Shown here: one piece after another, positions 2,932-60,995 of the stretch
How the letters are laid out: each line of letters begins with the position of its first letter
Numbering within the stretch: position 1 is the first letter of the stretch
Origin: an uncultured Chloroflexia bacterium
Lineage (GTDB): Bacteria > Chloroflexota > Dormibacteria > CF-121
DNA length: 64,000 nt
Reading direction: 5' to 3'
Assembly (NCBI GenBank): GCA_963795805.1
Contig: CAWCIV010000001.1
Span: 581,859 to 645,858 of the forward strand
Notes under the pieces: generated by a model
Seen by the model: the letters and a program-made list of their open reading frames with translations, nothing else
Told to the model about the DNA's origin: nothing
The model's database searches: none
Made by a program: the position numbers and the translations under genes

Positions 2932-4044
<1,113 letters not shown>

Positions 4045-7375: not shown

Positions 7376-7651
7376 ATGGCCGTCAAGATCCGGGTCCCGG
7401 GTGCGCTCCGCCAGTTGACGCGTGGCGCTGCGATCGTCGAGGTCAGCGCACAGGACGTCGGCCAGGCGCTCGATGCGCTGAACGAGCAGTTCCCGGGATT
7501 CCGCGAGCGCCTTTATGACGATAAGGGACAGCTGCGGCAGTTCATCAACATCTATCGCAACGACGAGGACATCCGCTTCGGATCGGGACTCAAGACGCCA
7601 CTGAGCGAGACTGACGATCTTTCGATTGTTCCGGCCGTCGCCGGCGGCTGA
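7376..7651 (+). CDS. CysO/MoaD-type ubiquitin-like sulfur-carrier protein (ThiS/MoaD family, C-terminal AVAGG)
   Basis: 91 aa ending ...DDLSIVPAVAGG; FINIYRNDEDIRF core closely resembles the mycobacterial CysO sequence FVNIYVNDEDVRF...ILPAVAGG. Confidence 0.8.
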   Translation: MAVKIRVPGALRQLTRGAAIVEVSAQDVGQALDALNEQFPGFRERLYDDKGQLRQFINIYRNDEDIRFGSGLKTPLSETDDLSIVPAVAGG

Positions 7652-7657
7652 GCCCAG

Positions 7658-7888
7658 ATGGCGCGGACGAGCGTGCGCCTGACGTTCCGCCGTGACACCC
7701 TCAATATCCCCGTGATCTATCAGATCGGCAAGGATTACAAGGTGGTCACAAACATCCGGCGCGCCGAGGTCAAGGACGAAATGGGGTGGGCCGATCTCGA
7801 TCTCGACGGGGAGCAGCCGGAGATCGAACGTGCCCTTACCTATTGCCAGAACCAGGGGGTCGAGGTGCAGCGCCTGGGGCCGGCGTGA
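7658..7888 (+). CDS. stand-alone NIL-domain protein (MetN C-terminal-like domain)
   Basis: 76 aa; pattern [65 protein letters not shown] matches the NIL domain layout; 7 nt after cysO-like stop. Confidence 0.55.
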
Positions 7889-8973
7889 GAGTCGCCGTCG
7901 CGATGAGCGGCGGCGTCGATTCCTCGGTGGCGGCGGCGCTCATGCGGGATGAGGGCCACGAGGTCTTCGGCGTGACGCTCCAGCTCTGGCCGAAGGAGAT
8001 GGCGGCCCGCGACTTCGATAAGCACCACGGCTGCTGCTCGCTGGACGCGGTCGAGGACGCGAGGCGGGTTGCGACCCGGCTCGGAATCCCGTATTACGTC
8101 CTGAACTTCGAGGACCAGTTTCGCGCGGCCGTGATCGAACCCTTCACCACGTCGTACCTGGAGGGTCTCACGCCGAACCCCTGCATCCGCTGCAACGAGA
8201 CCATCAAGTTCGGCCTGCTTCTCCAGAAGGCCCTCGCCCTCGGCGCCGACGTCCTCGCCACCGGGCACTATGCCCGCATCGATGATGGTGAGGGCGGGCT
8301 GCTGCTGAAGAAGGCGGTCGATCAGCGCAAGGACCAGTCCTACGTGCTGTACCAGCTCGGCCAGGGTGAGCTGCGCTCGCTCCGGTTCCCGCTCGGCGAA
8401 TGGACAAAGGCGCAGGTCCGTGCCCGCGCCGCGGAGCTCGGGCTCGTGACCGCCCTGAAGCCCGAAAGCCAGGAGATCTGCTTTATCGCGGACGGCAGCT
8501 ACCGGGACTTGTTGAAGACGCGCTTCGCCGAGCGGGTGCGCCCGGGACCGGTAATCGATGAAAGCGGAGCCGTGGTCGGCGAGCACGACGGGGTCGCGAT
8601 GTACACCGTCGGGCAGCGCTCCGGCCTGCGACTGCGATCGGCCGGTCCCGCCGCAGAACCGAAGTACGTGAGCGCGATCGACCCGATCGCGAACACGGTC
8701 ACCATCGGAGGCAATGCCCGAATGTTCGCGACCGCCTGCCGGGTGAATGACGTCCGCTATGTCAGCGGCGCGGCGCCGTCGGGTCCATTTCAGGCGCAGG
8801 TCAAGGTGCGATCGCATGCCGCCGACGCTGATGCGCTCGTCTGCCCCCGGGGTGACGAGGCGACGATCGAGTTCGCGGAGCCGCAACGCGCCCTGGCGCC
8901 CGGCCAGGCGGCGGTCTTCTACGACGGCGACCGCGTGGTCGGCGGCGGCCCGATCCGCGCGACGCCCCGGTGA
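7885..8973 (+). CDS. mnmA: tRNA-specific 2-thiouridylase MnmA (PP-loop ATP pyrophosphatase)
   Basis: [15 protein letters not shown]-loop; HHGCCSLD and [12 protein letters not shown] catalytic-Cys motifs; GTG start overlaps NIL stop (GTGA). Confidence 0.85.
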
Positions 8974-9266
8974 CTCAGCTCGACCTGGCAGCGCAGCACC
9001 CCCTCCTGCCGGTTGCCGCGCAGATCCTTCTTGCGTACCTGGCATCGGTCGGCGGCGTCCTGGCGGCAAAACTCGCCTGGGAGGGTCGGACGGCGTACTG
9101 GCTTTCGGTTCTCGGCGTGCTGCTCTTCCTGATCGGGGCGCTCTGGGGGCGAGGCATTCTCGCCTCTGGGACGACCTTTAGCGCGGTGGGGGCGGGCATA
9201 GCGATGGTGATCATCGGGGTCGCCCTCGACCTCCTCTTCGGGCCACCCTTCAGCACGACCAAATAG
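8970..9266 (+). CDS. small membrane protein (3 predicted TM), unknown function
   Basis: 98 aa hydrophobic ORF whose start overlaps the mnmA stop (GTGA); no recognisable motif (no NuoA FD.E signature). Confidence 0.45.
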
Positions 9267-9274
9267 CATTACCG

Positions 9275-10054
9275 GTGATGGACGCGTCCGACAAGTACAT
9301 GAGCGCGGCGATCGTCGCCCGCAAAGACTACGGACCGACCCTCTTCAGTGTTTGGATCAAGCCCCCGGAACCCTTGCCGTTCAAGGCCGGACAGTACGTC
9401 GCCTTCGGGGTCGAGCACAGCGACAAGGTGCTCGAACGGGCCTTCTCCATCGTCTCGAGCCCGCTCGAGGCGGAGCTGGAGTTCTTCATCGAGATGGTCC
9501 CTGAGGGCGCGCTCTCGCCGCAGCTACACCGGCTGGCCGTCGGCGACCACGTCTACATGCGAAAGAAGGCGAAGGGCATCTTCAACCTCGATGCAAAGTC
9601 CGGCCACCGGAAACACTTTCTGATCTCGACGGTCACCGGAATCGCCCCCTATGTCAGCATGGTGCGCACCCTTGCCCGGGACCTTAGGGAGGGTCGCCTG
9701 ACAGAGCCCCAGCGCCTGGTTATCCTGCAGGGCGCCGCGCGCTCCGACGAATTCGCCTACGATCGCGAGCTGATCGAGGCCGCGGCGGAGTTTCCCTGGG
9801 TGACCTACATCCCGACGATCAGCCGGCCCTGGGAGGATCCGGAGTGGGGCGGCGAGCGGGGAAGGGTGGACGACCTCGTGCGCAAGTACTCGGACACGCT
9901 TGGCCTCGAGCCGGCGGAGACCACCGCCTACCTGTGTGGCAACCCAGGCATGATCGTCAACGCCCGCGACATCCTGCGCCGCCGCGGCTACGACCACGCC
10001 GCGATCAAGGAAGAGACGTACTGGAAGCCGGGGGAGGGTGAGGTTGAGTACTGA
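9275..10054 (+). CDS. ferredoxin-NADP+ reductase-type flavoprotein (FAD/NAD(P)-binding two-domain oxidoreductase, no Fe-S domain)
   Basis: RAFSIVS (RxYS FAD motif), LISTVTGIAPYVSM (GTGxAP NAD(P) motif), YLCGNPGMI; 259 aa. Confidence 0.7.
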   Translation: MMDASDKYMSAAIVARKDYGPTLFSVWIKPPEPLPFKAGQYVAFGVEHSDKVLERAFSIVSSPLEAELEFFIEMVPEGALSPQLHRLAVGDHVYMRKKAKGIFNLDAKSGHRKHFLISTVTGIAPYVSMVRTLARDLREGRLTEPQRLVILQGAARSDEFAYDRELIEAAAEFPWVTYIPTISRPWEDPEWGGERGRVDDLVRKYSDTLGLEPAETTAYLCGNPGMIVNARDILRRRGYDHAAIKEETYWKPGEGEVEY

Positions 10055-10667
10055 GATAGAATCTCTCGCCGTGCCGCTGATCGGGGCGCTTCCCCAGTCG
10101 ATCACAGACCAACCTGCCGTCCTCATCATCTATGTGCTGCTTGTCGTCGCGATCGGCTCGGCGCTGGCGAGCGTCCTGCTGCGTAGCGTGCTCTACGCGA
10201 TTGCCGCCTTCGCTGTCACCATGGCCGCGGTGGCGTTTCTCTACCTGATGCTGGCGCCATTCCTCCTCTTCGCCGTCCAGCTGTTGATCTTCACGACGGT
10301 GAGTGCCGGCCTGCTGATCGGCTTGCTTCGGACCACGACCGGGCTCGACGAGGCGCCTGCCAGCCCATTTAGCGCTGAGTTGATCGCCGGCGCGGCCATT
10401 GCTGCGGCCGTCGCCGCCCTGCTCGGGGTCGTCGTCGGAGCCACCCACTGGCCGGTGCATTTCACGGACCTCACCGAAGGCTTTGGACATTCGCTTCTGA
10501 ACACCTACATCGTCGGGATCGCGGTTCTGGTAGTGATGGTCGCCTCGGCGGCTCTTGGCGCCGGCCTGCTCGTAACCCAGCGTCTCGGCCGGCGCGCCGC
10601 GGTGACCGCGCCTCCGGCGGCCCTGCAGGGGCGGCAACGGCCACGGCGACCGGAGCCCCGCCGATGA
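10038..10667 (+). CDS. nuoJ: NADH-quinone oxidoreductase subunit J-like membrane protein
   Basis: SVLYAIAAFAVTMAAVAFLYLMLAPFLLFAVQLLIFTTVSAGLLIGLL matches the NuoJ/ND6 core; start overlaps FNR-like gene end. Confidence 0.65.
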   Translation: MRLSTEIESLAVPLIGALPQSITDQPAVLIIYVLLVVAIGSALASVLLRSVLYAIAAFAVTMAAVAFLYLMLAPFLLFAVQLLIFTTVSAGLLIGLLRTTTGLDEAPASPFSAELIAGAAIAAAVAALLGVVVGATHWPVHFTDLTEGFGHSLLNTYIVGIAVLVVMVASAALGAGLLVTQRLGRRAAVTAPPAALQGRQRPRRPEPRR

Positions 10668-10981
10668 GCGCCGGCCTAAACCTGGTCCTGACCACCTCGG
10701 CCATCGTGTTCGGCATCGGCGCCCTGGCGCTGCTCGTCAAGCGGAGTGTTGTCGTCATGCTGATCGGCACGCAATTCATGCTGACCGCCGGCAGCCTCGC
10801 CTTTATCGCTTTTTCACGCTTCGGCTTCGGCGCGGTGAACCCGTCCCGAGGCCAGGTGGTCGCCCTGATCGTGTCGGGATTGGGGATCGCCGAGTTGGCG
10901 GCGGGGCTGGCGATGGCGGCGATCATCTACCGCGAGCAGCGGACCTTCCTGGTCGACGAGTACGAGTCGGTAGCGAGCTGA
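10664..10981 (+). CDS. nuoK: NADH-quinone oxidoreductase subunit K-like (NuoK/ND4L)
   Basis: 105 aa, 3 TM; MLIGTQFMLTAGSLAFIAFS and C-terminal AAGLAMAAIIYRE typical of NuoK; ATGA overlap with nuoJ. Confidence 0.7.
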   Translation: MSAGLNLVLTTSAIVFGIGALALLVKRSVVVMLIGTQFMLTAGSLAFIAFSRFGFGAVNPSRGQVVALIVSGLGIAELAAGLAMAAIIYREQRTFLVDEYESVAS

Positions 10982-10982
10982 C

Positions 10983-12935
10983 GTGACGCTGAGTCTCCTC
11001 GCGGCAGCCGCCAGGGGTCCGCTGGATACCTGGAGCCCGACCTTTCTCGCGTTGCTGGCCTTGCTCCTGCCGCTGATCGCGATCGTGTTGATCGCCGCCT
11101 TCACGATTGACTCGCGCCGCCTGAGCGCCGGCATCGCAGTCCTCTTCACGCTGGCCAGCGCGATCAGCGCGCTGCTGGTCCTGGCGATCGAAATCACCCA
11201 CCCGCTGCATCTCGAACGCGAGGGCACGTTCCTGCAATTCTTCACCGGCCTGTCGGGTACGGCCGCGGAATTCACGCTCAAGTGGGGGGTCACGGCCGAT
11301 CCACTGGCGGCCGTCATGCTGGCCACGGTCGCCATCGTCAGCGTCCTCGTGCAGCTCTACGCGCTGGGATCGATGCGGCGGGATGACGGGGCGATCCGGT
11401 TCTTCATGGTCATGCTCGTCTCCAGCTTCGCGATGTTCGGTTTCGTCCTCTCGACGAACTACTTCGAGCTGTTCCTCTTCGGCGGCCTGCTGACGGTCTC
11501 GTCGTACCTGCTCATCGGTCACTGGTGGCAGCGAGATGATGCCGCGCGAGCCGGGACCCGGACTTTTATCGTCTTCGCGATCGCGGACGTTGGCCTGTTG
11601 ATCGGGATCGTCTACATCTATTACCGGTTCAACGAGCTGAATTTCCAGGCGCTGGCGGGTCAGTACACCGGCGGCAAGGTGAGCTCGAACGGCCTCTTCT
11701 TAATGGCCCTCCTGGTGTTCATCGGCGCCGTTGCGCGCTCGGCGCAGTTCCCACTGCACGTCTGGCTCTCGGGCAGTGTCCAGGCGCCTGCCCCCGCCGT
11801 GGCGCTGATGCACTCGGCGACGGTGGGGGTCGCGGGGGTCTACCTGGTTGCCCGCAGCTATGCGCTTTTTATCGCGAGCCCACGTGCGCTCGTGGTCGTC
11901 GCGATCGTGGGTGGCCTGACGGCGGTGCTGGGCGTGGTCTGGTCCCTGTTCCAGGACAACCTGAAGCGGGCGATCGCCTACGCCACCATGGGCGAGCTTG
12001 GCCTGATGATGCTCGCGCTGGGGATCCGTGCCTACGGGGCGGGTGCCTTCGAGGTCATCACGCACGCCTGGCCCAAGGCGCTGCTGTTTCTCGCCGCTGG
12101 GATCATCATCCGCGAGCTCCGCACGGAACAGATGGCCGAGATGGGTGGACTGCTGCGGCGCATGCCGCGCACCGGTGTGATTGCGCTGATCGGGGTCGCG
12201 GCCCTGGCCGGCATCCCCCCGCTCAGCACCTTCTGGAGCAAGGACGCCATCCTGTCGCGCGCGCTGGCAAGCGGGAACCCCGTTTCCATCGCGGTCGTCG
12301 TCCTCACGACCTTCCTGCTCGCCGTGGCCGTCTTTCGAGTCTTCGCGCTGGTGTTCCTTGGGCAGACGGCGCGCCGGCGCCGCTTCGAGCCCGACCGGAT
12401 TCGTGAGGCGGGCGGTCGGGTTGCGCTCGCCATGATCCTGCTCGCCGTCGCCAGCGTCGTGGCGGGGGTCCGAGGATTCCCGGGGCGAAGTGACTACCTC
12501 GGCTTTGTCTCCTTCCACGGCCTCATCCCCTCGAACTCGCACCTGGTCGCCGCCGCGATCACGATCATCGCCAGCGTCGCGGGCGCCGGTGCCGCGCTCC
12601 TCGCCTACGGGCGCCGGCCTCTGCCGGCAATGCCACCGGCCCTTGCGCCGGCGCGGCAGGCCCTGGGCCAGGGCCTCTACCTCGACCGGGGCTATCAGTT
12701 CGCCGTCGATCGCGGCGTGCTGCCGCTCAGCGGCGCGTTTGCCTGGACCGATCGCCGGGTCATCGACCAGGGCGTCGACCTCGTCGGCGACTCCATCACG
12801 TTCGCCTCGACGCCGCGCCGGCGCCTGCCGCGGCTGCGCGCGCAGCACTTCGCGCTCGGCCTCTTCACCGGCCTGGTCGCCCTGGCCGCCGTCACCATCC
12901 TGATCGGCGCCCATCTGATCAAGGGCGTCGGCTGA
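10983..12935 (+). CDS. nuoL: NADH-quinone oxidoreductase subunit L-like (antiporter-like subunit with lateral helix)
   Basis: 650 aa; NuoL/MrpA signatures (WGVTADPLAAVMLATVAIVS, LIGHWW, HAWPKALLFLAAG). Confidence 0.85.
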   Translation: MTLSLLAAAARGPLDTWSPTFLALLALLLPLIAIVLIAAFTIDSRRLSAGIAVLFTLASAISALLVLAIEITHPLHLEREGTFLQFFTGLSGTAAEFTLKWGVTADPLAAVMLATVAIVSVLVQLYALGSMRRDDGAIRFFMVMLVSSFAMFGFVLSTNYFELFLFGGLLTVSSYLLIGHWWQRDDAARAGTRTFIVFAIADVGLLIGIVYIYYRFNELNFQALAGQYTGGKVSSNGLFLMALLVFIGAVARSAQFPLHVWLSGSVQAPAPAVALMHSATVGVAGVYLVARSYALFIASPRALVVVAIVGGLTAVLGVVWSLFQDNLKRAIAYATMGELGLMMLALGIRAYGAGAFEVITHAWPKALLFLAAGIIIRELRTEQMAEMGGLLRRMPRTGVIALIGVAALAGIPPLSTFWSKDAILSRALASGNPVSIAVVVLTTFLLAVAVFRVFALVFLGQTARRRRFEPDRIREAGGRVALAMILLAVASVVAGVRGFPGRSDYLGFVSFHGLIPSNSHLVAAAITIIASVAGAGAALLAYGRRPLPAMPPALAPARQALGQGLYLDRGYQFAVDRGVLPLSGAFAWTDRRVIDQGVDLVGDSITFASTPRRRLPRLRAQHFALGLFTGLVALAAVTILIGAHLIKGVG

Positions 12936-14401
12936 TGCTGCTCCTGAGCGCCATCGTCTGGGTCCCCGCAACCGCGGCCCTGCTCCTGCTCTTCTTCCCC
13001 ACGCGGACCCCGGCCGAGAAGGCCCGGATCCGGACCGTCGCCATGGCGGCGGCCGCCTTCGTCACCGCCCTCGACGTGCTGATGTGGTACGGCTTCCGCG
13101 ACCAGAGCGGCACCTATGCCTACGATGAGAGCCGCTCCTGGCTCCCGAGCCTGGCATCGAGCTATCACCTCGGGGTCGACGGCGTCAGCATGTCGCTGCT
13201 GCTGCTCGCCGGCATCCTCTCCCTGGTCGCGATCCTCGTCTCCAACCGGATCCGCGACGATGTCCGGGGATTCTTCATCCTCATCCTGGTGGTCGAGACC
13301 GGCGTCAATGGGGCGCTCTGCTCGCTCGACTTCCTGCTCTTCTTTCTCTTCTGGCAACTGCAAGCGGTCCCCCTCTGTTTTCTGACCGCCGGATGGGGTG
13401 GGCCACGGCGGCTGGCGGCCGCCTGGAAACTGCTCGCCGTCGAGATGATCGGGAGCGGCCTGCTGCTGCTGGCCATCCTGATCCTCTACATCAAGGCGCC
13501 GACTCATACGTTCGATATGGCCACCCTCCACGACCTGACCTTTCCGGCGTCTGCCTCCGGTCTCGTCTTCGCGCTTTTCTTTATCCCGTTCGCTCTGCGG
13601 CTGCCCGTGTTCCCCTTCCATACCTGGTTCACGGACGCGCAGGCAGAGGCCGCGCCGCCGGTCGCGATCATCCTGGCCGCCATCGTGACCAAGCTTGGGG
13701 CGTACGGCCTGATCCGGGTCAACGTCGGGGAGTTCCACTCGACGCTGCACAAGGTCTCGGGAGCGATCGCGGTGCTGGCGGTGATCACGGTCCTCTGGAG
13801 CGCCATCGCCGCCTTCCGCGAGGATGATTTGCGCCGGGTCATCGGCTACCTGGTGGTCGGCCACGGGGGCGTTCTGCTGCTGGCGGTAGCCTCGGGCTCG
13901 CCGGTCGCTTTGAACGGCGCCGTCCTCCTGATCGCAGCTGACGGACTCGCCGCCGCCCTCATGATCCTGATGGTGGCCGCCGTGGCAGAGCGAGCCAACA
14001 CGCGCTCCATCCGCGCCATGGGTGGACTCGCGGCGCGGATGCCCCGAGGTGCCCTCCTCTGGTTCCTCGGCGCCCTCGCCGCCCTGGGGCTGCCCGGGCT
14101 GGCCGTCTTTACCGGACAGCTTCTCGTGTTCCTCGGTGCCTACCCGAGCCAGCGGCTTGTCACCAGCCTCGCCATCCTCGGCAGCCTGCTGACGGCCGCG
14201 GTGATGGTGTGGACGTTCCAGCGCGTCTTCTTCGGATCGCTGAGCGAGGCCTACGTGAGGGTCCGTGATGTCGGAAGCCTCGAGCTCGGGACTGGCATCG
14301 GCCTGCTCTCCCTGCTGGCGCTGCTCGGGTTCCTGCCCGTGATCCTCATGGACAGCATCAACTTCTCGGTGCTGACGCTGCTCAGCGGAGTTGGTGGGTG
14401 A
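12935..14401 (+). CDS. nuoM: NADH-quinone oxidoreductase subunit M-like
   Basis: 488 aa antiporter-like subunit (SWLPSLASSYHLGVDGVSMSLLLLAG...HTWFTDAQAEAAPPVA). Confidence 0.85.
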   Translation: MLLLSAIVWVPATAALLLLFFPTRTPAEKARIRTVAMAAAAFVTALDVLMWYGFRDQSGTYAYDESRSWLPSLASSYHLGVDGVSMSLLLLAGILSLVAILVSNRIRDDVRGFFILILVVETGVNGALCSLDFLLFFLFWQLQAVPLCFLTAGWGGPRRLAAAWKLLAVEMIGSGLLLLAILILYIKAPTHTFDMATLHDLTFPASASGLVFALFFIPFALRLPVFPFHTWFTDAQAEAAPPVAIILAAIVTKLGAYGLIRVNVGEFHSTLHKVSGAIAVLAVITVLWSAIAAFREDDLRRVIGYLVVGHGGVLLLAVASGSPVALNGAVLLIAADGLAAALMILMVAAVAERANTRSIRAMGGLAARMPRGALLWFLGALAALGLPGLAVFTGQLLVFLGAYPSQRLVTSLAILGSLLTAAVMVWTFQRVFFGSLSEAYVRVRDVGSLELGTGIGLLSLLALLGFLPVILMDSINFSVLTLLSGVGG

Positions 14402-15828
14402 CGCTCGACAACGTCCTCGCGTTCGCGCCCGAGCTCTGGCTGCTCGTCGGCGCGGTCGTCGTCTTTGCGCTAGCCCGCTTCCGGCCGGGGTTCTCGGCGA
14501 CCGCTGTCGCGCTGGCCGCGGTGGCGCTGGCCTTTCTGGCGCTGCTGACACAGGCGAAGCAGACGATCACCATCCTCGACGGCGCCTTCCTGCTAGATGG
14601 GTACGCCATCGTCATCGACATGGCCATCCTGGTCGCCAGCGCGCTTGCGCTCCTCATCAGCTTTGGCGACGTCATCCCAGGTGAGTCCCGCGCCGGCGAG
14701 CTTGCCGGCTTCCTGTTGCTGGCGACCGTCGGAGCGATGCTGTCCGCCTCGGCGGCCGAAATGGTCGCCTTGCTGGTCTCACTCGAGTTGCTGGCCGTGA
14801 ACCTGTACCTGCTGGCGGCCCTGGCGCGCCGCGGCGGCGATGCGGCACATGCCGGCGTGGGCTACCTGGTTCTGGGCATGGCCGGCACCGCGATCCTCGT
14901 CTACGGGCTGGCGTTGATCTATGGGCTCACCGGCGAGACCCGGCTGGCGGCGGCCGGACGGGCGCTTCGCGCGATCGGGCCGGGCCAGCCGGCGGCCCTG
15001 CTCGCCCTCACCCTGCTGATCGTCGGCTTCCTCGGAAAACTCGGCATGACGCCGGTTCGCTGGTGGACCCGGGCCTTCGACCTGGGGGTCCCGATGCGGG
15101 TCCTGGCCTTCGTCTCGTCGGTGGGGGTGCTGGCCGGGTTTGCCGCCTTCACCCGGCTGCTCTGGTTGACATTCAGCTTCACATCGATCGGCTACCCGAC
15201 CGTGATCGCCGTCGTGGCGGCGATCACGATGACCGGTGGCGCCGTGCTGGCGCTGGCCCAGACCAGCGTCCGGCGGCTGCTGGTGTACTCGACGGTCGCG
15301 CAGGGTGGCTACGCCCTGGCGGCGATGGTCGATCTGCCGCGCAACGGCGTGCGCGCGGTGCTGGTATTCATGATCGCCCTCGGCCTCACCAACGTGTGCG
15401 CCTTCGCGGCGATGATGGCCTACGGGCGGGCCGTCCACAGCGACGCGATCCGCGACCTTGCCGGAATGGCTCGGTCGACCCCCGGCGTCGCGGTCGTGCT
15501 CGCCCTTGCGATCGCCTCCCTGATCGGGCTGCCCCCACTGGCGGGATTCTTCGGCAAGTTCGTCGTGCTGAAGGCGGTGGTCGACGGCGGCTTCGCCTGG
15601 CTGGCGGTCGTCGGCGTGCTCGACATCCTGCTCCTGGCTCTCTGCTACCTCCGGTTGGTCCGGGTGGCCTTTCTCGACCCGCCGGTCTACGAGGTCCCGC
15701 CACATCGGCTCGACTGGCCGCTGCGCCTGGCGATGGGCGTAAGCACCGCCGGGGTCATCTTCCTCGGGCTCGGGCTCGGACCTCTCCTGACCGCGGCCAG
15801 TTACGGCCAGCACAGCCTTGTGCACTGA
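14398..15828 (+). CDS. nuoN: NADH-quinone oxidoreductase subunit N-like
   Basis: 476 aa antiporter-like subunit; start overlaps nuoM stop. Confidence 0.8.
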   Translation: MTLDNVLAFAPELWLLVGAVVVFALARFRPGFSATAVALAAVALAFLALLTQAKQTITILDGAFLLDGYAIVIDMAILVASALALLISFGDVIPGESRAGELAGFLLLATVGAMLSASAAEMVALLVSLELLAVNLYLLAALARRGGDAAHAGVGYLVLGMAGTAILVYGLALIYGLTGETRLAAAGRALRAIGPGQPAALLALTLLIVGFLGKLGMTPVRWWTRAFDLGVPMRVLAFVSSVGVLAGFAAFTRLLWLTFSFTSIGYPTVIAVVAAITMTGGAVLALAQTSVRRLLVYSTVAQGGYALAAMVDLPRNGVRAVLVFMIALGLTNVCAFAAMMAYGRAVHSDAIRDLAGMARSTPGVAVVLALAIASLIGLPPLAGFFGKFVVLKAVVDGGFAWLAVVGVLDILLLALCYLRLVRVAFLDPPVYEVPPHRLDWPLRLAMGVSTAGVIFLGLGLGPLLTAASYGQHSLVH

Positions 15829-15935
15829 GCGTTAAGAACGCACCTGGCTATCACGTTTCGCCCAAGCGCCTGATCTGACCGGCACGGCCCGCCGACGGTA
15901 ACCTTGCCCCCAATGCCACCGTTTACCGAGACGCC

Positions 15936-18146
15936 GTGAGAAGCCGGAGAAGCATGCGCCAGCGCCGGGGCCGGCACGCGCCGCAGGTCGTTCGCGCCGC
16001 CGTCCCGGCCCCGGCAGCCCGCCGGCGCCACGGGGCACCACGGTGGCTTCGCCGGCTGCTGCTCGCGGGTCTGGCGGGCTCGCTGGCCAGTCTTGTCGGT
16101 GCGGGGACATTTCTGTACAGCTATGCCGGTGAGCTGCCCAACCTCGCCAACCTGAGCGCGGAGAACCTCCCGCAAACGACTCGCATCTACGCCCGCGACG
16201 GGACGACCTTGCTCGAGGAGCGCTACCAGCAGCGCCGGACCGTCGTGCCCCTTGAGCAGGTGGCCTGGGACCTGCGGCACGCCACCATCGCGATCGAGGA
16301 TCGCGACTTCTACAACCATGGCGCCATCAGTCCGCTCCGCATCGTGGCCGCCGGCTTCTACGACGTCACGCATGGAAGCGCGGCCCAGGGCGGAAGCACG
16401 ATCACCCAGCAGCTGGTCAAGAACTATCTGCTCCAGGACACCGCCCAGAGTCGCAGCCTCGACCGGAAGGCGCGCGAGCTGGTGCTGGCGGTGGAACTCG
16501 AGCGTGAGTACTCGAAGGACCAGATTCTTGGCATGTATCTGAACACGATCTTCTACGGGAACCAGGCGTTCGGCGTCGAGGCCGCCGCGCAGACGTACTT
16601 TGGGATGTCGGCGGCGAAGGTCGACCTGGCGCAGGCGAGCTTCCTAGCCGGGCTGCCGCAGCGACCAAGTTATTTCAATCCGTTTCTGGCCACGGGCTTC
16701 AGCGAGGCCCGCGCACGGCAGCGGGACGTGCTCAATGCGATGGTGCGGGATGGATACGTCACCGCGGCTAACGCCGACCGCGCCTATGCGGAGGATCTGC
16801 GTCCAGCCCTGACCACGGCGCGGCAGGCCGCGGGCGGCCGCCGCTCTTCGATCGCTCCCCATTTCGTGGACTACGTATGGAGCGAGCTGGAGCGCCGCTA
16901 CGACCCGAACTATCTGCGCTCGGGTGGGCTGCGGATTGTGACCACGCTCGATCCGCACGCGCAGGCGCTGGCGGAGCAGGCCGTGACCAGCGGCGTGGCG
17001 CATTTCGCGAAGTCAAACGGGGTCAACAATGGGGCGATGCTCGTCATGGACCCGCACACGGGTGCGGTGCTGGCGATGGTCGGAAGTGCCGACTACTTCA
17101 ACACCGCCATTGGCGGCCAGGTCAACTACACGGTTTCGCCGAGGCAACCCGGCTCCTCCTTCAAGCCCTATACCTACGTCACGGCCCTGCTGAACGGCTG
17201 GACGCCCGCCTCACCGCTGGACGACAGCCATGGGGCGACGGCGTTTCCGGGCTACCCGGTCCACGACTGGGATGGCAAGGAGCTGGGCACGATCACCTTG
17301 CGGCAATCGCTCCAGCAGTCGCGCAACATCTCGTCGGTTCACCTGTTCAAGGACGTCGGGATCGACAAGGTGTTTACGGTGGCCAAGGGCCTGGGGATCA
17401 GCACCCCGCTCGATCCGACCCTGCCGACGACACTCGGTGCGAGCGAGCTGCGCATGATCGACCACCTCTCCGCCTATAGCAGCTTCGCCAACGGCGGGCA
17501 CCGGATACGCGCCGCGACCGTGCTGGAGATCCGTGACGGCCGGGGCGCGCTGCTCGAATCCAACCGGCCGCAACGAGATTCCGGGGAGCGCGTGCTGCCC
17601 GCCTCGGCCGCCTACATGCTGACCGACATTCTCAAAGGCGCCGTCCGGCCTGGCCTCGGGTTTTCGGCTGCCGCCAAGTCGGGAACAACCACCGATTTCA
17701 AGGACGCCTGGTACGTGGGGTACACGAGCGACCTGGCGGTGGCGAGCTGGATGGGGCGGACCGTCACCCTGCCGACGCCGCGCAACGAGTCGATGAATGG
17801 GCTCTGGGGTGAGGTCGGGCCGTCGATGGCCTGGCGGCAGTTCCTCAAGGCCTACTATGCCGGTCGCAAGCCGGCCGACTGGACCCGGCCGGCGGACGTC
17901 ATCTCGACCACCCTGTGCAAGCTCACGGGACGCCCGGCGGCGCAGATTCCCACCGACCTTGCCGTTACCGACCTTACCGTCAAGGCCGACGTGGCGCCGA
18001 CGGCATCCTGTGGCCAGCCAGGATCGGGCCAGCCGGGGCGCATCCTTCCCATCGAACCGCCAGGCCTGCCAGGCCTTCCGACGATGCCATCCTTGCCGCC
18101 GCTGCCGTCGCTGCCCCCCTTGCCCCTGCCCAGCCTGCAGCCCTGA
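15936..18146 (+). CDS. class A penicillin-binding protein (PBP1A-type glycosyltransferase + transpeptidase) with proline-rich C-terminal tail
   Basis: GT51 motifs (EDRDFYNHGAISP, GGSTITQQLVKN), transpeptidase SxxK/SxN/KTG (SSFKP, SRN, KSGTT); C-terminus LPGLPTMPSLPPLPSLPPLPLPSLQP. Confidence 0.85.
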   Translation: MRSRRSMRQRRGRHAPQVVRAAVPAPAARRRHGAPRWLRRLLLAGLAGSLASLVGAGTFLYSYAGELPNLANLSAENLPQTTRIYARDGTTLLEERYQQRRTVVPLEQVAWDLRHATIAIEDRDFYNHGAISPLRIVAAGFYDVTHGSAAQGGSTITQQLVKNYLLQDTAQSRSLDRKARELVLAVELEREYSKDQILGMYLNTIFYGNQAFGVEAAAQTYFGMSAAKVDLAQASFLAGLPQRPSYFNPFLATGFSEARARQRDVLNAMVRDGYVTAANADRAYAEDLRPALTTARQAAGGRRSSIAPHFVDYVWSELERRYDPNYLRSGGLRIVTTLDPHAQALAEQAVTSGVAHFAKSNGVNNGAMLVMDPHTGAVLAMVGSADYFNTAIGGQVNYTVSPRQPGSSFKPYTYVTALLNGWTPASPLDDSHGATAFPGYPVHDWDGKELGTITLRQSLQQSRNISSVHLFKDVGIDKVFTVAKGLGISTPLDPTLPTTLGASELRMIDHLSAYSSFANGGHRIRAATVLEIRDGRGALLESNRPQRDSGERVLPASAAYMLTDILKGAVRPGLGFSAAAKSGTTTDFKDAWYVGYTSDLAVASWMGRTVTLPTPRNESMNGLWGEVGPSMAWRQFLKAYYAGRKPADWTRPADVISTTLCKLTGRPAAQIPTDLAVTDLTVKADVAPTASCGQPGSGQPGRILPIEPPGLPGLPTMPSLPPLPSLPPLPLPSLQP

Positions 18147-18213
18147 TCTCGGCCGCCCCGGTGGCCGCCATACGCACCTTGACGGGTGAGGGCAAAGCGC
18201 CTTTACTCAGATA

Positions 18214-19134
18214 GTGGTCAGGCGACCCTCCCAGAAGCCAGCCCAGGCCGACGAACCGGAGCTTCCGCCGAATCTCTTCGTTATCGGGCTGCTCAACGAT
18301 CTGAAGAAAGGCGCCTACAGCCGTCGCGCCTGGGGCGCCTTCTGGCGTGCCTCGTGGGTCCGGTCGATCCAGAACATGCAGGAGCACGAGGAGTTGCGCG
18401 CCTCGTGGGTCCGGTTCGCGGTCGGCGGCGCCACCGCCATCCTGCTCGGGTCGGTGGCGGTCTTCAGCGCCGCTCACGCGATGGAGTCACTCTTCTTCCT
18501 GATTACGTGCCTTATCTGGTGGGGCGTCCTGATGGTCGACATGGGTCTCCATCTCGGGCTGATGGTCAACCTCGAAACCGGCGAGATGCAGCGGTCGCTC
18601 GGATGGCCGAACCGCCTCACGGCGATGCGCGGCTTCTCCGCGGTGCTGGTGGGCTGGGGCGCGCACTGGGCCAGCCAGGGCTCGTACGTCGCCCTGGTCG
18701 CCGTCTTCGGGGTCGCCGCGCTGACGGACCTGCTCGACGGTTGGCTGGCGCGGCGAGGCCACGCCTCCACCCGATGGGGCCGCCTCTACGACCCGTTCAT
18801 GGACGGCATCTTCTTCAGTGTCGCCGCCGTCTCGCTGGCCGTGATCGGGATCCTGCCTGAATGGCTCGGCGCCCTGGTCGCTATCCGGTACGCGTTTCCG
18901 ATCGTCGGCGGGATCGTGTTCCTCTTCGTCCGCCGCCGGACGCTGCGGGTTAGGCACACCACCTGGGGTCGTCTCTCCTCGGCTGGGATCGCGGTCACGG
19001 TCTTCGTCGCCGCCGCGGCGGCCTTTTTGCACCTGCCGTTCAGCTTGATTGCGCCCGGCCTTTACGCCGCGGTCTGCATTGCCGCGCTGGGTGCGTTCAT
19101 CACGATTTTGATGAAAGGCGTCGAGCAGATCTGA
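18214..19134 (+). CDS. CDP-alcohol phosphatidyltransferase family protein with ~130-aa N-terminal extension
   Basis: ALTDLLDGWLARRGHASTRWGRLYDPFMDGI = D(x)2DG(x)2AR...G(x)3D(x)3D motif; true start uncertain (alternative starts near 18375 or 18481). Confidence 0.6.
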   Translation: MVRRPSQKPAQADEPELPPNLFVIGLLNDLKKGAYSRRAWGAFWRASWVRSIQNMQEHEELRASWVRFAVGGATAILLGSVAVFSAAHAMESLFFLITCLIWWGVLMVDMGLHLGLMVNLETGEMQRSLGWPNRLTAMRGFSAVLVGWGAHWASQGSYVALVAVFGVAALTDLLDGWLARRGHASTRWGRLYDPFMDGIFFSVAAVSLAVIGILPEWLGALVAIRYAFPIVGGIVFLFVRRRTLRVRHTTWGRLSSAGIAVTVFVAAAAAFLHLPFSLIAPGLYAAVCIAALGAFITILMKGVEQI

Positions 19135-20858: not shown

Positions 20859-21424
20859 TCGCGCTCCCGGTCCGACTGGGTGGCTCGGCGGCACGGGTCA
20901 CAGGCCTGGTCCTTGCTGCGGCCGCCCTTCGCGCGCTCCTCCTGCCGCTCGGGGACGGCCTGAGCACGGCAGCATTCGGACTCTGCCTCGGAGGGATCGC
21001 GTGGGCGTGGCGACAGGAGGATTCCGGCGCCGATCGGTGGGGGATCGGGGTCTCGGTCATCGCGGGACTCTGCCTCGGCGTCGTCCTCCTCACTCCGCTG
21101 TTCGGCAGTGCCGTAAACGGGCGGCCACTCACTGAGTTCTGGGAATGGGGGGCCATCGCCGCCGCGATCGCGACTCTCGAGGAGGTTGCCATCCGAGGAC
21201 GGCTTCAGCAGTGCTGGAGCCAGGAGGCGGGTCCGGTCGCGGCGATCGTGATTGGAGCCGCGGTGTTCGCGGCGATTCACCTGTCGCGCTACGGGGTTAC
21301 GGCGATGCCCCTCGACTTCGCGGTGGGGCTGGCGCTTGGGGGCATCCGCGCGATCACCGGCCGGGTCCTGCCCGGAGCGCTCGCGCACATCATGGCCGAT
21401 TGGGGCGCCTGGTTCTGGGCGTGA
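20856..21424 (+). CDS. CPBP family intramembrane glutamic endopeptidase (CAAX protease/bacteriocin-processing family)
   Basis: EEVAIRGRL (EExxxR), FAAIHL (FxxxH), ALAHIMAD (HxxxN/D); GTG start overlaps SBP stop. Confidence 0.7.
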
Positions 21425-22149
21425 CGGCCACCCGCCGGGCGGGACTGGTGGCGCTCGCGGTCGGCGTGGTGGCGACCATGCTGATGCACGGGCGCGGGGC
21501 GGCGCCGCCGGTCTTCGACGGCATCGTGACGCCACCTTCCCCGTATCACTGGGCGTCGCCACCGCCCGAACTCCGATCCGGCAATGTGCCGCCGTCGCCG
21601 GGCGACGCCACCTTTCCCGTTCACAACGGCCAGGTAGCCGGCGGCAGCCTGCAAACCGGTGACGCCCAGGTCGTGATCTACTTCGGTGTCGGGCTCTTCG
21701 CGTTATCGCCCTCGGCCCAGAGCGTTCGATGCACCGTTACGCCGCTGTCGAACCCACCCCCGCCCCCGCCCGGGAGCCAGATCCGTGGCAACGTCTATCA
21801 CATTCAGTGTATCGAGCAGCCAGGTGGCAAGGTCCTGACGGCGGTCGGAACATTCAACCTGACGATGCGGTATCCGAGCGGTCCGTTCAAGGAGATCCAG
21901 TACGACGATGGCGCCGCCTGGCACCCGCTGCCAACCACGACCGTCGGCGGAGGCAACCCCTTTGCCGGTGCCCGGCCTGGCGCGTTCGGCGACTTCGCCG
22001 CCACGGCGCCGGCGGGGGCGACCGGGCCGGGGATCCTCGACTTCCTCGGACGCTCCCTCGAGTTCTACGGCATTATCCTGTTCGTGGTCGTGTTCGGCGT
22101 GATCGCGATCGTCCAGGAAGTTCGTCGCCGGAGGAAGGCCAGGCAATGA
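21421..22149 (+). CDS. hypothetical exported protein with polyproline segment and C-terminal TM anchor
   Basis: N-terminal hydrophobic segment, SNPPPPPPGS, C-terminal EFYGIILFVVVFGVIAIVQEVRRRRKARQ; GTGA overlap with upstream gene. Confidence 0.4.
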   Translation: MTATRRAGLVALAVGVVATMLMHGRGAAPPVFDGIVTPPSPYHWASPPPELRSGNVPPSPGDATFPVHNGQVAGGSLQTGDAQVVIYFGVGLFALSPSAQSVRCTVTPLSNPPPPPPGSQIRGNVYHIQCIEQPGGKVLTAVGTFNLTMRYPSGPFKEIQYDDGAAWHPLPTTTVGGGNPFAGARPGAFGDFAATAPAGATGPGILDFLGRSLEFYGIILFVVVFGVIAIVQEVRRRRKARQ

Positions 22150-23474
22150 CGCTGATCCCACTGCACGCGTTCGGCACGAGGTACGACCTGCCCGCGCCCC
22201 TGTATCTGTTTCTCCTGGGCGCGGGCGCGGTCGTCTTCATGTCGTTTCTCCTGGTTCTCCGGCAGCCGGTTGGCCGCCGTGTGCCATCGGGCGAGGATGT
22301 GGTGTCGGTTCGGCACGGGGCGAGCTGGCCAGGGTGGGTTACCGTGGCGCTTTCGTCGCTGCTCGTCGCCATCGGCCTGTTCGGTACCCAGAGCACGCCG
22401 GACAACGTCGCCGTCACCGCCTTCTGGCTGGTGTTCTGGATCGCCGTCCCGATCAGCATCGCGATCGTCGGGAACTTCTGGCCGTTCATCAGTCCGCTGA
22501 ACGTCGTCGCCCGATTGGTCGGCCCGCGTCCCCGTGTTCCGTATCCAACTGCCTGGGGATTCTGGCCCGCGGCGGTTTTGTTCTTTCTCTTTGCCTGCGG
22601 GGAGCTGATCTTCAATGCCTACACCACCACACCGGCCGGCGCGGCCGTGGTGATGCTGGCCTACGGCATCGTTAACGCGGTAATGGCGTCGGTCTTCGGC
22701 GCCGAGACCTGGCTACGGCGCGGGGAGGTCTTCTCGGTGCTGTTCGCCACCTGGGGCCGGCTGGGCTATTTCCGCTTCGGGGAGCCCGGTCGGCGCGGGT
22801 TCCTCGGTGGTCTCACCCGTCCCTTCGAGGCGTCGGTCAGCCGGCTGACGTTCGTCCTGCTCCTGCTCGTCTCGGTGAGCTTCGATGGCCTCCTCTCGAC
22901 CCCGAGCTGGAAGCAAATGGCAGGCGGGCTCCCGGAAAGCTTCAGGCCAGGCACCAGCGGCTACGTCCTGGTCCTGCTGGCGACGTTCGTCGCTTTGGTG
23001 GCGTTGATCTGGGGGCTGTTTGCCGGGTTCAGCGCGGCCGTGCGCGCCGTGGGTCGGCTGGATGCACCGTTCCTTCGGGTGATGTCGGGCTTGGTGCCAT
23101 CCCTTGTCCCGATCGCCTTCGGCTATCTCGTCGCGCACAACCTGGATTACCTGGTGATCAATGGCCAGCTGCTCATCCACCAGATTTCCGATCCCCTTGG
23201 CACTGGAACGCTCAATCTCTTCGGCACGGTCAACTACGAGCCGAACCCAAACCTGATCCCGACGGGGGTGATCTGGTATTTTCAGATCGCCCTGATCATC
23301 GCGGTGCACATTGCCGCGGTCGTCCTCGCCCATAACTACCTCGGCCGGGTGGCGCGCACGGAGCGGCAGGGCAAACAGGCGGAGTGGCCCTGGATCGTGG
23401 CGATGGTCGGGTACACGATGTCAAGTCTCTGGTTGCTCGCGCAGCCGATCGTGCAGGAAGGCACCAAAGGCTGA
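22146..23474 (+). CDS. polytopic membrane protein (about 10-12 TM), unknown function
   Basis: 443 aa, hydrophobic throughout; ATGA overlap with upstream gene. Confidence 0.5.
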   Translation: MTLIPLHAFGTRYDLPAPLYLFLLGAGAVVFMSFLLVLRQPVGRRVPSGEDVVSVRHGASWPGWVTVALSSLLVAIGLFGTQSTPDNVAVTAFWLVFWIAVPISIAIVGNFWPFISPLNVVARLVGPRPRVPYPTAWGFWPAAVLFFLFACGELIFNAYTTTPAGAAVVMLAYGIVNAVMASVFGAETWLRRGEVFSVLFATWGRLGYFRFGEPGRRGFLGGLTRPFEASVSRLTFVLLLLVSVSFDGLLSTPSWKQMAGGLPESFRPGTSGYVLVLLATFVALVALIWGLFAGFSAAVRAVGRLDAPFLRVMSGLVPSLVPIAFGYLVAHNLDYLVINGQLLIHQISDPLGTGTLNLFGTVNYEPNPNLIPTGVIWYFQIALIIAVHIAAVVLAHNYLGRVARTERQGKQAEWPWIVAMVGYTMSSLWLLAQPIVQEGTKG

Positions 23475-24283
23475 GCCTCCATCCACTGCATGCCAGCCTT
23501 TCGCTGACGACGTGGTCGCTGGACCCGACGGTCCTGCTCGGCACGCTAGCGCTGGGGGCGGGTTACGCCTGGCTGATCCGCGGCCGTGGCCAGATCGCTG
23601 CGTGGTCACCGGTCGCGCGTCTCTACTTCGCCCTGGCGCTGCTGGCCCTGATCCTGGCGCTCGAGTCGCCGATCGATGTCGGCGGGGATCGCTATCTGTT
23701 CAGCCTGCACATGGTGCAGCATCTGCTGCTGGCGATGGTGGTGCCACCCCTGTTGCTCCTCGGCCTCCCCGCGGAGTGGTTGCTGCTCGAGCGGCTCCGG
23801 ATCCCGCCCCTGGCCGCCATCGTAATTTTCAATCTTGTCCTCGCCGTCTGGCACCTGCCCTTCCTCTACGAGGCGACGCTCCGCAACGGACCAATTCATG
23901 TCGCGGAGCATCTGAGCTTTCTCGCCGCCGGGGTGCTTTTCTGGTGGCCGATCATGGCGCCAAGCACCCCCCGCCGGGGCCTCACCGCGATCGGGAAGAT
24001 CGCGTACCTCGGCTTCGCCGGGGTGCCGCCCACGATCCTCGGACTCGCCTTCATCCTGTCGCGGAGCGTGATTTACCCGTTCTATGCCGCGGCTCCGCGG
24101 GTCACCCCGCTGTCGCCCCTCGAGGACCAGGTGGCGGCCGGCCTCGTCATGTTCGGGCTGGGCAACCTCATCTATTTCGCGGCGATCGCGATCATGTTTT
24201 TCCGTTTGGATGACGCGGACGCCACAGCCGGTGACCTCGTCGGGAAGGCCCCGCAACAACCCCATGCCACAATGAGGTCGTGA
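23384..24283 (+). CDS. cytochrome c oxidase caa3 assembly factor CtaG-like membrane protein
   Basis: SLHMVQHLLLAMVVPPLLLLGLP...HLPFLYEATLRNGPIHVAEHLSFLAAGVLFWWPIM; only canonical start is GTG 23384 (overlaps upstream gene by 91 nt), real start may be later. Confidence 0.6.
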   Translation: MALDRGDGRVHDVKSLVARAADRAGRHQRLSLHPLHASLSLTTWSLDPTVLLGTLALGAGYAWLIRGRGQIAAWSPVARLYFALALLALILALESPIDVGGDRYLFSLHMVQHLLLAMVVPPLLLLGLPAEWLLLERLRIPPLAAIVIFNLVLAVWHLPFLYEATLRNGPIHVAEHLSFLAAGVLFWWPIMAPSTPRRGLTAIGKIAYLGFAGVPPTILGLAFILSRSVIYPFYAAAPRVTPLSPLEDQVAAGLVMFGLGNLIYFAAIAIMFFRLDDADATAGDLVGKAPQQPHATMRS

Positions 24284-24717
24284 CCCAGAGGACCACGGCA
24301 ACCGAGGCGCTGCACACGTCCGGCTACCGCCTGACGATGCAGCGGCAGATCGTCTGGGATACCCTCCGGCAGGCCAAAAAGCATCTGAGCGCCGACGATC
24401 TCCTTGGGCAGATCCGCAAGCAGTATCCCCGTTTCAATGTCGCGACGATCTATCGATCCCTCGAGGTACTTGAGGAACTGGGGCTGATCAAGGAAACGCG
24501 GATTGGCGATCGCGGGTACTACGAGCTGGCCGAAGAGGGGACTGATCATTATCACCTGGTCTGCGATCAGTGTGGTTCAACCCTGCATATCGAAGGTGAT
24601 CACCTGGTGCCGGTGCTGCATCACATCACCGAAGAACACGGTTTCGTCGTCAGCTCGGCGGACCTCGTGGTGCACGGCCGCTGCGCCCGCTGCCAGTCGA
24701 AGGCATCGCGGCCCTAA
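24280..24717 (+). CDS. fur: Fur-family metal-uptake transcriptional regulator
   Basis: winged-helix N-domain, HYHLVCDQCG and HGRCARCQ metal-site motifs; 145 aa. Confidence 0.85.
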   Translation: MTQRTTATEALHTSGYRLTMQRQIVWDTLRQAKKHLSADDLLGQIRKQYPRFNVATIYRSLEVLEELGLIKETRIGDRGYYELAEEGTDHYHLVCDQCGSTLHIEGDHLVPVLHHITEEHGFVVSSADLVVHGRCARCQSKASRP

Positions 24718-60849: not shown

Positions 60850-60993
60850 GACGTCACGACTCCGCCGGAGGTCTCCTGTACTTTCTGTCAATCGACGGAC
60901 ACCGAGGTCATTTCGCTGTTCGGGAGCCAGGTGATGACGATGCAATGCCGGTGTCGCAAGTGTGGCAACTACTTCGAGGCGAGCAAGTACTGA
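60850..60993 (+). CDS. small zinc-ribbon protein equivalent to PaaD C-terminal domain; start uncertain
   Basis: VSCTFCQSTDTEVISLFGSQVMTMQCRCRKCGNYFEASKY matches the PaaD C-terminal CxxC...S.FGS..C...C..C..F pattern; GAGGGGAGGGA RBS at 60838-60848; no canonical start within 30 nt. Confidence 0.4.
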   Translation, partial: DVTTPPEVSCTFCQSTDTEVISLFGSQVMTMQCRCRKCGNYFEASKY

Positions 60994-60995
60994 CC

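Follow-up and report, generated by a model that had tools for sequence, protein, structure and literature searches.

Gene content of the locus

The stretch of DNA analysed here, 64 kb of contig CAWCIV010000001.1 (assembly GCA_963795805.1) from an uncultured Chloroflexia bacterium of the Dormibacteria and referred to below as the window, carries at positions 9275-15828 the five genes nuoJ, nuoK, nuoL, nuoM and nuoN, which correspond to the distal membrane arm of respiratory complex I. They are preceded by the genes of an FNR-type flavoprotein and of a small membrane protein. The features concerned are as follows.

8970-9266, + strand: small protein of 98 amino acids (aa) with three transmembrane (TM) segments predicted from hydropathy
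9275-10054, + strand: FNR-type flavoprotein (PF00175, PF00970); the start is at 9278 in the gene call of an identical contig
10038/10044-10667, + strand: divergent NuoJ (PF00499 weak; profile-profile match)
10664-10981, + strand: NuoK (PF00420, 5e-15)
10983-12935, + strand: NuoL, full-length (NF005141, 6e-122)
12935-14401, + strand: NuoM (TIGR01972, 378 bits)
14398-15828, + strand: NuoN (TIGR01770, 3e-77)

An earlier note on this DNA had described the arrangement, and its description held. Homology was confirmed for all six genes of 9275-15828, which share the + strand, and both the flavoprotein and the small three-TM protein were found directly upstream of nuoJKLMN. The absence of NuoA, NuoH and the peripheral-arm genes, which had been reported for this unit, extends to the whole window: tblastn with E. 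coli NuoA-I gave no match in the 64 kb, and Pfam scans of essentially all remaining genes there found no other nuo genes. From mnmA, which precedes the small protein, to nuoN the neighbouring genes overlap or are separated by gaps of at most about 10 nt. When promoters and terminators were scanned to delimit the operon, none was observed above the shuffled expectation.

Identity of the NuoJ, K, L, M and N subunits

The products of the five genes, in the order J-K-L-M-N, are those of the distal membrane domain of an enzyme of the complex I type. NuoL was aligned with NF005141 over positions 5-612 of 615 at 409 bits, NuoM scored above the cut-off of TIGR01972 and matched ND4/NuoM chains in the PDB, and NuoN reached 260 bits with TIGR01770, which is below the cut-off of that model. 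As a single sequence NuoJ gave a weak match to PF00499 (E 5e-4); the profile of its family was matched to the canonical NuoJ profile by hhalign with a probability of 98.3% and an E value of 1.5e-14. In the case of L, M and N the Nuo models scored far above the Ndh, Fpo, Mrp and Hyf models. An Mrp, Fpo or Hyf identity was rejected on these scores, the Mrp models reaching roughly half of the Nuo bits (229 against 409 bits for L), and the suggestion of the earlier note that the genes might form an Mrp-like module did not survive this comparison. Genes resembling mrpB, mrpE, mrpF or mrpG were not found flanking the nuoJKLMN cluster in the Pfam scans.

The AlphaFold (AF2) model of NuoL, which is of low local confidence (pLDDT 61, pTM 0.67), contains the helices 552-562 and 567-608, the latter a long one, followed by a terminal TM helix at 620-645. 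Foldseek aligned it over the full length with the NdhF, NuoL and Nqo12 chains at a TM-score of about 0.7, and residue D542 is D or E in 137 of 144 family members. As far as it is modelled, NuoL is thus shown to retain the lateral helix and the C-terminal anchor.

Replacement of residues of the proton relay

Residues are numbered as in the E. coli Nuo proteins and their roles are taken from the work on E. coli. The canonical reference consisted of 54-79 homologues per subunit from 80 genome loci, a sample rather than a census, which span Firmicutes, Actinobacteria, Chloroflexota, Cyanobacteria, Verrucomicrobiota and other phyla; nuoA-I lies directly upstream in most of the non-cyanobacterial loci. 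The functional relay positions include the ion pairs between the Glu of TM5 and the Lys of TM7 (NuoN E133/K217, NuoM E144/K234), the central lysines (NuoN K247, NuoM K265), the bridging histidines, the distal NuoM E407, and NuoK E36 and E72 (PMC9271201).

In the MAFFT alignment of the window NuoL with the E. coli protein and the canonical set, the replacements E144G, R175A, K229R, D303N and H334E were observed, while D178, H254, K342, K399 and D400 were kept. In NuoM four residues are changed, E144 to Q141, K234 to R222, H348 to D336 and E407 to Q395, and the Q, R, D and Q states were repeated in an independent HMMER alignment to the plant Nad4 (7AR7_M). In the case of NuoN, K247 is replaced by V244 and K158 by G155, and E154H, H224R and D229A were found as well; E133, K217 and K395 are retained. 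NuoK has Q37 in place of E36 and keeps E72, and in NuoJ F85 stands for Y59 and T for G61. The motifs around the substituted residues are in clear register, as in KSAQFPLHVWLPD against RSAQFPLHVWLSG or FW[E] against FW[Q].

An unbiased count, with no picking of residues, covered every column of at least 95% invariance among the canonical sequences. The window proteins deviate in 33 of 97 such columns in L, 13 of 37 in M, 11 of 37 in N, 4 of 8 in K and 4 of 5 in J. The median deviation of the canonical sequences in the same columns is 0, and their maxima are 10 (L), 4 (M), 3 (N), 2 (K) and 1 (J). A phmmer search over 1.84 billion cluster representatives yielded 142 canonical NuoL representatives, approximately 135 of which have ERDKHDHHKKD, or conservative K/E variants of it, at 11 key positions; the window NuoL reads GADRHNEHKKD.

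Thus neither the antiporter-like relay (TM5 Glu, TM7 Lys, central Lys, bridging His, distal Lys/Glu) nor the set of E-channel residues (NuoK E36/E72, NuoJ Y59) was found complete. As judged from the aligned residues, the canonical lateral proton relay of this structurally complete arm is most probably broken at NuoN, at NuoM and at the E-channel residues of K and J. The earlier note had proposed to check the lateral helix of NuoL together with the charged-residue channels: the helix is kept, and many of the channel residues across L, M and N are replaced. By homology and architecture nuoJKLMN is a complex I arm; its catalytic residues and operon context do not fit those of one.

A family-specific Arg-rich loop (GETARRRRFEPxRIRD, NuoL 460-475, window 12360-12407) was also seen between TM14 and TM15, in place of the canonical HxHESP.

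Conservation of the derived states and selection on the cluster

The derived states were counted over 13-169 family members, depending on the subunit. Of the 144 NuoL sequences of the family, 129 have G in place of E144, 142 have N in place of D303 and 141 have E in place of H334, and the family keeps D178, K229 (as K or R), H254, K342, K399 and D400. Both E144 and E407 of NuoM are Q in 13 of 14 members; of the 13 NuoN sequences, 12 have G for K158 and 10 have V for K247. NuoK has Q for E36 in all 42 sequences and keeps E72 in 39 of these, and Y59 of NuoJ is F in 157 of 169.

The pairwise dN/dS values (NG86) were 0.27 for J, 0.19 for K, 0.17 for L, 0.18 for M and 0.24 for N. For the neighbouring genes the values were 0.13 (MnmA), 0.11 (FNR), 0.14 (PBP1A, a class A penicillin-binding protein) and 0.18 (CDP-alcohol phosphatidyltransferase, CDP-OH transferase); dS is high, near 0.8, and the ratios are best read relative to these neighbours. 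Read in this manner, the coding sequences show purifying selection on nuoJKLMN like that on the adjacent genes.

It is very improbable that the five genes are decaying remnants, functionless pseudogenes in the making. Erosion that proceeds stepwise and differently in each lineage, as described below, would be compatible with decay, as would a NuoL split into 557 + 68 aa in one locus (L139). In all other loci the open reading frames (ORFs) of the cluster are intact, the dN/dS values of 0.17-0.27 resemble those of the housekeeping neighbours, the derived states are themselves conserved (K E36Q, L D303N and L H334E, for instance), and the cluster has been kept across lineages as distant as 47% identity in MnmA. 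Pseudogenisation was rejected on the dN/dS values and the intact reading frames.

The split NuoL lies at L139:5813-7689 on a JGI contig, and a 90%-identical ENA copy (P0525) is intact with 646 aa; the split, which concerns the most eroded lineage, results either from a fault of the assembly or from a genuine frameshift.

Distribution and graded erosion of the arm

The closest homologues of FNR, NuoL and NuoJ bear the names Candidatus Dormibacteraeota or Dormibacter, and the best 120 matches of each search consisted of family orthologues only. NuoL and NuoJ have identical counterparts on an NCBI contig of 1.16 Mb. The GC content of the window is about 66%; the median of the Dormibacteria is 66.9% (PMC10608941). 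A metagenome scan with the NuoJ family alignment gave 48 loci, and all of these that are long enough carry the order permease, ThiS, NIL, MnmA, small protein, FNR, J-N, PBP1A, CDP-OH transferase; the order from the permease to the CDP-OH transferase was also found in L005, L006, L139 and L142. In more than 50 loci, including the more distant L137 and L140, none of nuoA-I could be detected within 10 kb in either direction from the gene that had been searched for (FNR, NuoJ or NuoL).

The NuoL family extends down to 41-52% identity (P0361-P0367), then there is a gap, and canonical sequences follow at 40% or less. In neighbour-joining trees the family was placed on a long branch outside all Nuo and Ndh proteins sampled, none of which stood out as its sister group. 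The earlier note had named, as the outcome that would speak against a special module, L, M and N subunits branching as ordinary paralogues of a main nuo operon together with an FNR gene of no conserved linkage. In the trees of the sampled sequences the first part did not come out so, the family being a long branch that has lost invariant residues; the second did in substance, the FNR link being confined to general synteny.

L137 has a NuoL 42% and a PBP1A 58% identical to those of the window, and its gene order is DXP synthase, a 72-aa protein, a beta-propeller protein, J-K-L-M-N, PBP1A and CDP-OH transferase. L140 (GC 73%, MnmA 47% identical) carries ThiS, NIL, MnmA, two small TM proteins, J-K-L-M-N and lipid-synthesis genes. 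The separate existence of nuoJKLMN predates the divergence of the Dormibacteria lineages.

The loss of the canonical residues is graded over these lineages. It is least advanced in L137, in which L, N and K are nearly canonical and the changes already present are E144Q, K234R and E407Q in M, K247V in N and Y59C in J; the core clade is intermediate, and in L139 and L140 almost every canonical charge of L, M, N and K is lost. At the same sites different replacements are found in different lineages, which points to a relaxed constraint on the pumping chemistry and a retained constraint on the fold. As L137 combines near-canonical L, N and K with a cluster of nuoJKLMN only, it suggests that the arm began as a working complex I arm whose other nuo genes lay elsewhere. 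The Arg-rich loop of NuoL was observed even in L137.

Altered NuoL proteins were also encountered outside the family. The complete 14-gene nuoA-N operon of L138 (L138:443-15027, GCA_038317525.1) has a NuoL with E144G, R175A and D303N, which is the only altered subunit there, M, N, K and J being canonical. In L141 (L141:74-4895) NuoL carries E144A and R175T, and M and N are canonical. Changes of this type were seen in only about 2 of the 142 NuoL cluster representatives, and on these sequences the two proteins may represent a form of the terminal pump unit that is rare in nature. The triple change within the complete operon of L138 means that complex I with a modified pump unit does occur naturally.

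The FNR gene and the small three-TM protein

The FNR has the Pfam domains PF00175 (NAD_binding_1, 4.6e-15) and PF00970 (FAD_binding_6, 4.6e-06), and the closest solved structure is the E. coli flavodoxin reductase 1FDR (E 7e-24). With this Fpr protein it shares the two-domain FAD/NADP fold, the motifs RAFS, GTGIAP-like and CGNP, and a C-terminal region in which an aromatic Tyr-Trp (YW) precedes a tail of 10 residues. The FAD and NADP motifs are intact, and neither a TM segment nor an extra domain was found. It differs from 1FDR in the short C-terminal tail, in being co-oriented with nuoJ in one clade, and in its score: of the NCBIfam models Fpr matched best, with 99 bits against an equivalog cut-off of 390 bits, and for this reason an exact substrate was not assigned. 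From its sequence the protein is classed as an ordinary soluble NADPH:ferredoxin/flavodoxin reductase of the Fpr type. Its orthologues are 72-96% identical.

The idea of the earlier note that the flavoprotein and the arm could form a redox-coupled ion-translocating module was not borne out. In such a system the FNR would either dock on the arm as an NAD(P)H- or ferredoxin-driven ion pump or feed ferredoxin to an 11-subunit complex I, and we regard this as highly unlikely. The close linkage is what would favour it, the FNR and nuoJ genes overlapping or lying 16-30 nt apart on one strand, with the pair kept in more than 50 loci. However, the FNR adjoins the arm only in loci that show synteny over the entire neighbourhood. 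As the core clade keeps the order of all genes from ThiS to the CDP-alcohol transferase, this adjacency carries little information. The more distant L137 and L140 have nuoJKLMN without an FNR, and the FNR homologues at 62% and 54% identity stand in unrelated contexts, unlinked to nuo genes. The reductase is soluble, the arm is without the residues needed to pump, and no quinone or Fe-S module accompanies it. Because the arm occurs without the FNR in L137 and L140, the FNR gene is, on this gene distribution, an insertion in one sub-clade and not a defining partner or subunit of the arm.

The small 98-aa protein accompanies the FNR and is present in all FNR-bearing lineages; its dN/dS is 0.19, its orthologues in L005, L139 and L142 match its hidden Markov model at 1e-21 to 1e-28, and it has no Pfam or NCBIfam match. 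That it might be a cryptic NuoA was considered and rejected, the hhalign probabilities against the NuoA, NuoJ, NuoK and NuoH profiles being below 3%.

Partner genes and the possible role of the arm

The scan of genome contigs with the NuoL alignment gave, among the matches listed, canonical operons of other phyla, which were reached through the universal motif AQFP[LF]HVW. The nearest canonical NuoL clusters bearing names belong to Thermaerobacter, Kyrpidia, Hydrogenibacillus, Rokubacteria and Halobacteria, and there was no canonical Dormibacteria NuoL among them. In the literature on Dormibacteria respiration that was searched, the only mention of nuo genes is that of KEGG orthologues (KOs) for nuoA and nuoB in one Dormibacterota metagenome-assembled genome (MAG), DOR_08 (PMC9326234 supplement).

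The interpretation we tentatively prefer, while holding it to be somewhat less than probable, is that the five genes supply the membrane arm of the NDH-1 of this lineage, with nuoA-I encoded elsewhere, and that this arm pumps few or no protons. NuoJ-N would still come together in a membrane arm, and its partners NuoA, NuoH and the quinone (Q) module would most probably be encoded at another site, as in a split nuo operon. The arm would be mainly structural or "low-gear", with N and M contributing few or no pumped protons and NuoL retaining most of its own channel residues. The presumed points of breakage are the central Lys of N, the TM5 Glu and the distal Glu of M, the TM5 Glu of L, E36 of K and Y59 of J. 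The FNR would be co-transcribed by happenstance in one sub-clade and would not be a subunit of the module. This interpretation is supported by the nuoA and nuoB KOs of the Dormibacterota MAG and by the complete operon of L138 with its altered NuoL; the lack of a special affinity to any canonical clade is what is expected of the deep-branching genes of the lineage itself.

Several points weigh against it. As nuoA-I was found in no Dormibacteria locus within 10 kb of the searched gene, assembly with the Q module is something that we infer. We know of no precedent for a loss of pump residues in the sole complex I of an organism, and such a loss is more typical of a duplicated copy that has been freed from its function. 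The changes of E to Q, K to R and H to E or D could also indicate a relay that is rewired rather than dead, and the new conserved acids L E338, L E357 and M D336 would fit such a rewiring. The further proposition that this is the only arm in the Dormibacteria, so that they possess either a de-geared or non-pumping NADH:quinone oxidoreductase with a structural arm or an enzyme coupled via rewired residues, seems to us rather unlikely. If it is true, the series from L137 through the core clade to L139/L140 records the evolutionary switch-off of pump units.

The loss of invariant residues under continued purifying selection is the classic pattern of a freed paralogue, and it gives weight to a different explanation, which is a serious contender even if we consider it doubtful. 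According to this, a canonical nuoA-N operon is present elsewhere, and the window holds an old, diverged second J-N set, serving in a hybrid complex I of altered stoichiometry or in a non-pumping function at the membrane. The different replacements at the same sites in different lineages fit the relaxed constraint on pumping that a second set would have. There is a precedent in nuo2 of Streptomyces, a second, partial cluster of unclear function that may form hybrid complexes (PMC9239103). A canonical operon on a Chloroflexota chromosome of matching GC (L067) gave a tetranucleotide correlation of 0.92 with the window; however, the signal is not specific, as an Acidobacteria locus gave 0.91, and the genes flanking L067 include none in common with the window. 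A canonical Dormibacteria NuoL was not found, the nearest named clusters coming from other phyla, and the genomes of the Dormibacteria are small (median 2.87 Mb; PMC10608941). The family is far from every canonical clade and a recent duplication is not visible.

The lack of nuoA-I in the window and around the searched genes would also agree with an orphan arm, for which no nuoA-I partners exist and J-N alone works as an Mrp-like cation/proton transporter, mainly through NuoL, or as a structural membrane complex. We consider this improbable. A composition of J, K, L and M/N corresponds to MrpA, MrpC and MrpD. All 95 Gilliamella genomes retain nuoJKLMN only (PMC11325843), and in most lineages NuoL keeps D178, K229, H254, K342, K399 and D400. 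Against this stand the nuoA and nuoB reported in the Dormibacterota MAG, the Mrp scores far below the Nuo scores, the lack of mrpB/E/F/G-like genes nearby, and the NuoL of L139 and L140, which is also without nearly all of the channel residues.

Comparison with known systems

The window arm shares with the canonical complex I arm (E. coli NuoJKLMN, T. thermophilus Nqo10-14) the five families, the gene order, the lateral helix of NuoL and the fold; it differs in lying outside a nuoA-I operon, in the replaced relay residues and in its long branch. The nuoJKLMN genes of Gilliamella and other Orbaceae, which were compared by gene content only, are likewise J-N alone, kept across a whole clade, and have been interpreted as what genome reduction left behind in gut symbionts without nuoA-I (PMC11325843). 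In contrast, the hosts of the present genes are free-living soil bacteria, the genes lie in a conserved operon-like block, and there is a MAG with nuoA and nuoB. The nuo2 cluster of Streptomyces resembles the window in being an incomplete nuo set of unclear function or partner (PMC9239103), but it holds A, B, H, I, J, K, M and N without L, whereas the window has exactly the distal arm including L. L138 and L141 share with the window NuoL the E144G/A and R175A/T changes, and L138 also D303N; they differ in their canonical M and N (in L138 also K and J) and in the adjacent nuoA-I. The Mrp Na+/H+ antiporter has parts like L/M/N, K and J and, as here, no redox module; the differences are the model scores, the missing MrpB/E/F/G genes and the complex-I-type lateral helix of the window NuoL.

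A split organisation of nuo genes is common (bioRxiv 10.1101/2025.03.13.643058), and as partial nuo sets are also known, there is no novelty in the arrangement of the genes by itself. The literature searched, which was a limited library, contained no description of antiporter-like subunits that have lost their invariant Glu, Lys and His residues throughout a clade and under selection.

The manner in which complex I couples quinone reduction to its four distant proton channels is a matter of continuing debate, which rests largely on residues that do not vary in nature and hence on mutagenesis. Here a whole lineage varies those residues in graded steps under selection, and it offers a natural test case for the pump mechanism. 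Should the arm be part of a functioning complex I, it would reveal which elements of the "electrostatic wave" can be dispensed with. It would also suggest that soil bacteria which grow slowly and are limited in energy can adjust their pumping stoichiometry downward, and this would mirror the known variants with an extra pump subunit. If it is an orphan, a large membrane complex that is abundant in soils would have an unknown job. In either case the automatic annotation "complex I present" may overstate the energy-conserving capacity of the Dormibacteria.

Neighbouring genes and further observations

The genes on both sides of those listed above, all identified by Pfam matches, are the following.

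7376-7651, + strand: ThiS
7658-7888, + strand: NIL-domain protein
approximately 7903-8973, + strand: MnmA
15936-18146, + strand: class A penicillin-binding protein
18214-19134, + strand: CDP-alcohol phosphatidyltransferase

Together with the genes between them they form a tight co-directional block on the + strand, window 7376-19134; at the junctions outside the mnmA-nuoN part the gaps are 7 to about 110 nt. The ThiS-like/NIL/MnmA unit upstream of nuoJ-N is kept in L139:1038-3813 and L140:1-2777, where it is preceded by a PALP-family enzyme in both cases. It looks like the ThiS-type sulfur-carrier route to 2-thiouridine in tRNA. The genes 3' of nuoN are always envelope or lipid genes (window 15936-19134; L137:15165-18186; L140:9984-14525); L140 has at this place the genes of a lysophospholipid acyltransferase, a GT4 glycosyltransferase, PlsY and an LPG-synthase-like protein. 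The association could hint at a membrane-related function, or it could be no more than synteny.

A different gene order was noticed in the nuo operons of the Limnocylindria-type loci L049, L054, L069 and L070, namely A-B-C-D-H-(short I-like)-E-F-G-I-J-K-L-M-N, in which nuoH is shifted ahead of nuoEFG.

Further genes of the window deserve mention. The alpha subunit of a Rieske ring-hydroxylating oxygenase is encoded at 2932-4044, about 5 kb upstream of the FNR gene, and is also present in L006; it is conceivable as an alternative client of the FNR/ferredoxin system. Long high-GC ORFs with no Pfam match (334, 581 and 231 aa) were found at 21145-23474 and 23606-24301, two of which (21145-22149 and 21729-23474) overlap each other, so the gene calls there are uncertain. 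A DUF222/HNH endonuclease gene, of a type often tied to mobile DNA, lies among housekeeping genes at 29095-30321. At 60945-61826, 45 kb from the arm, there is a UbiE/COQ5-family methyltransferase, which possibly has a role in quinone biosynthesis and bears on the question of which quinone the organism uses.

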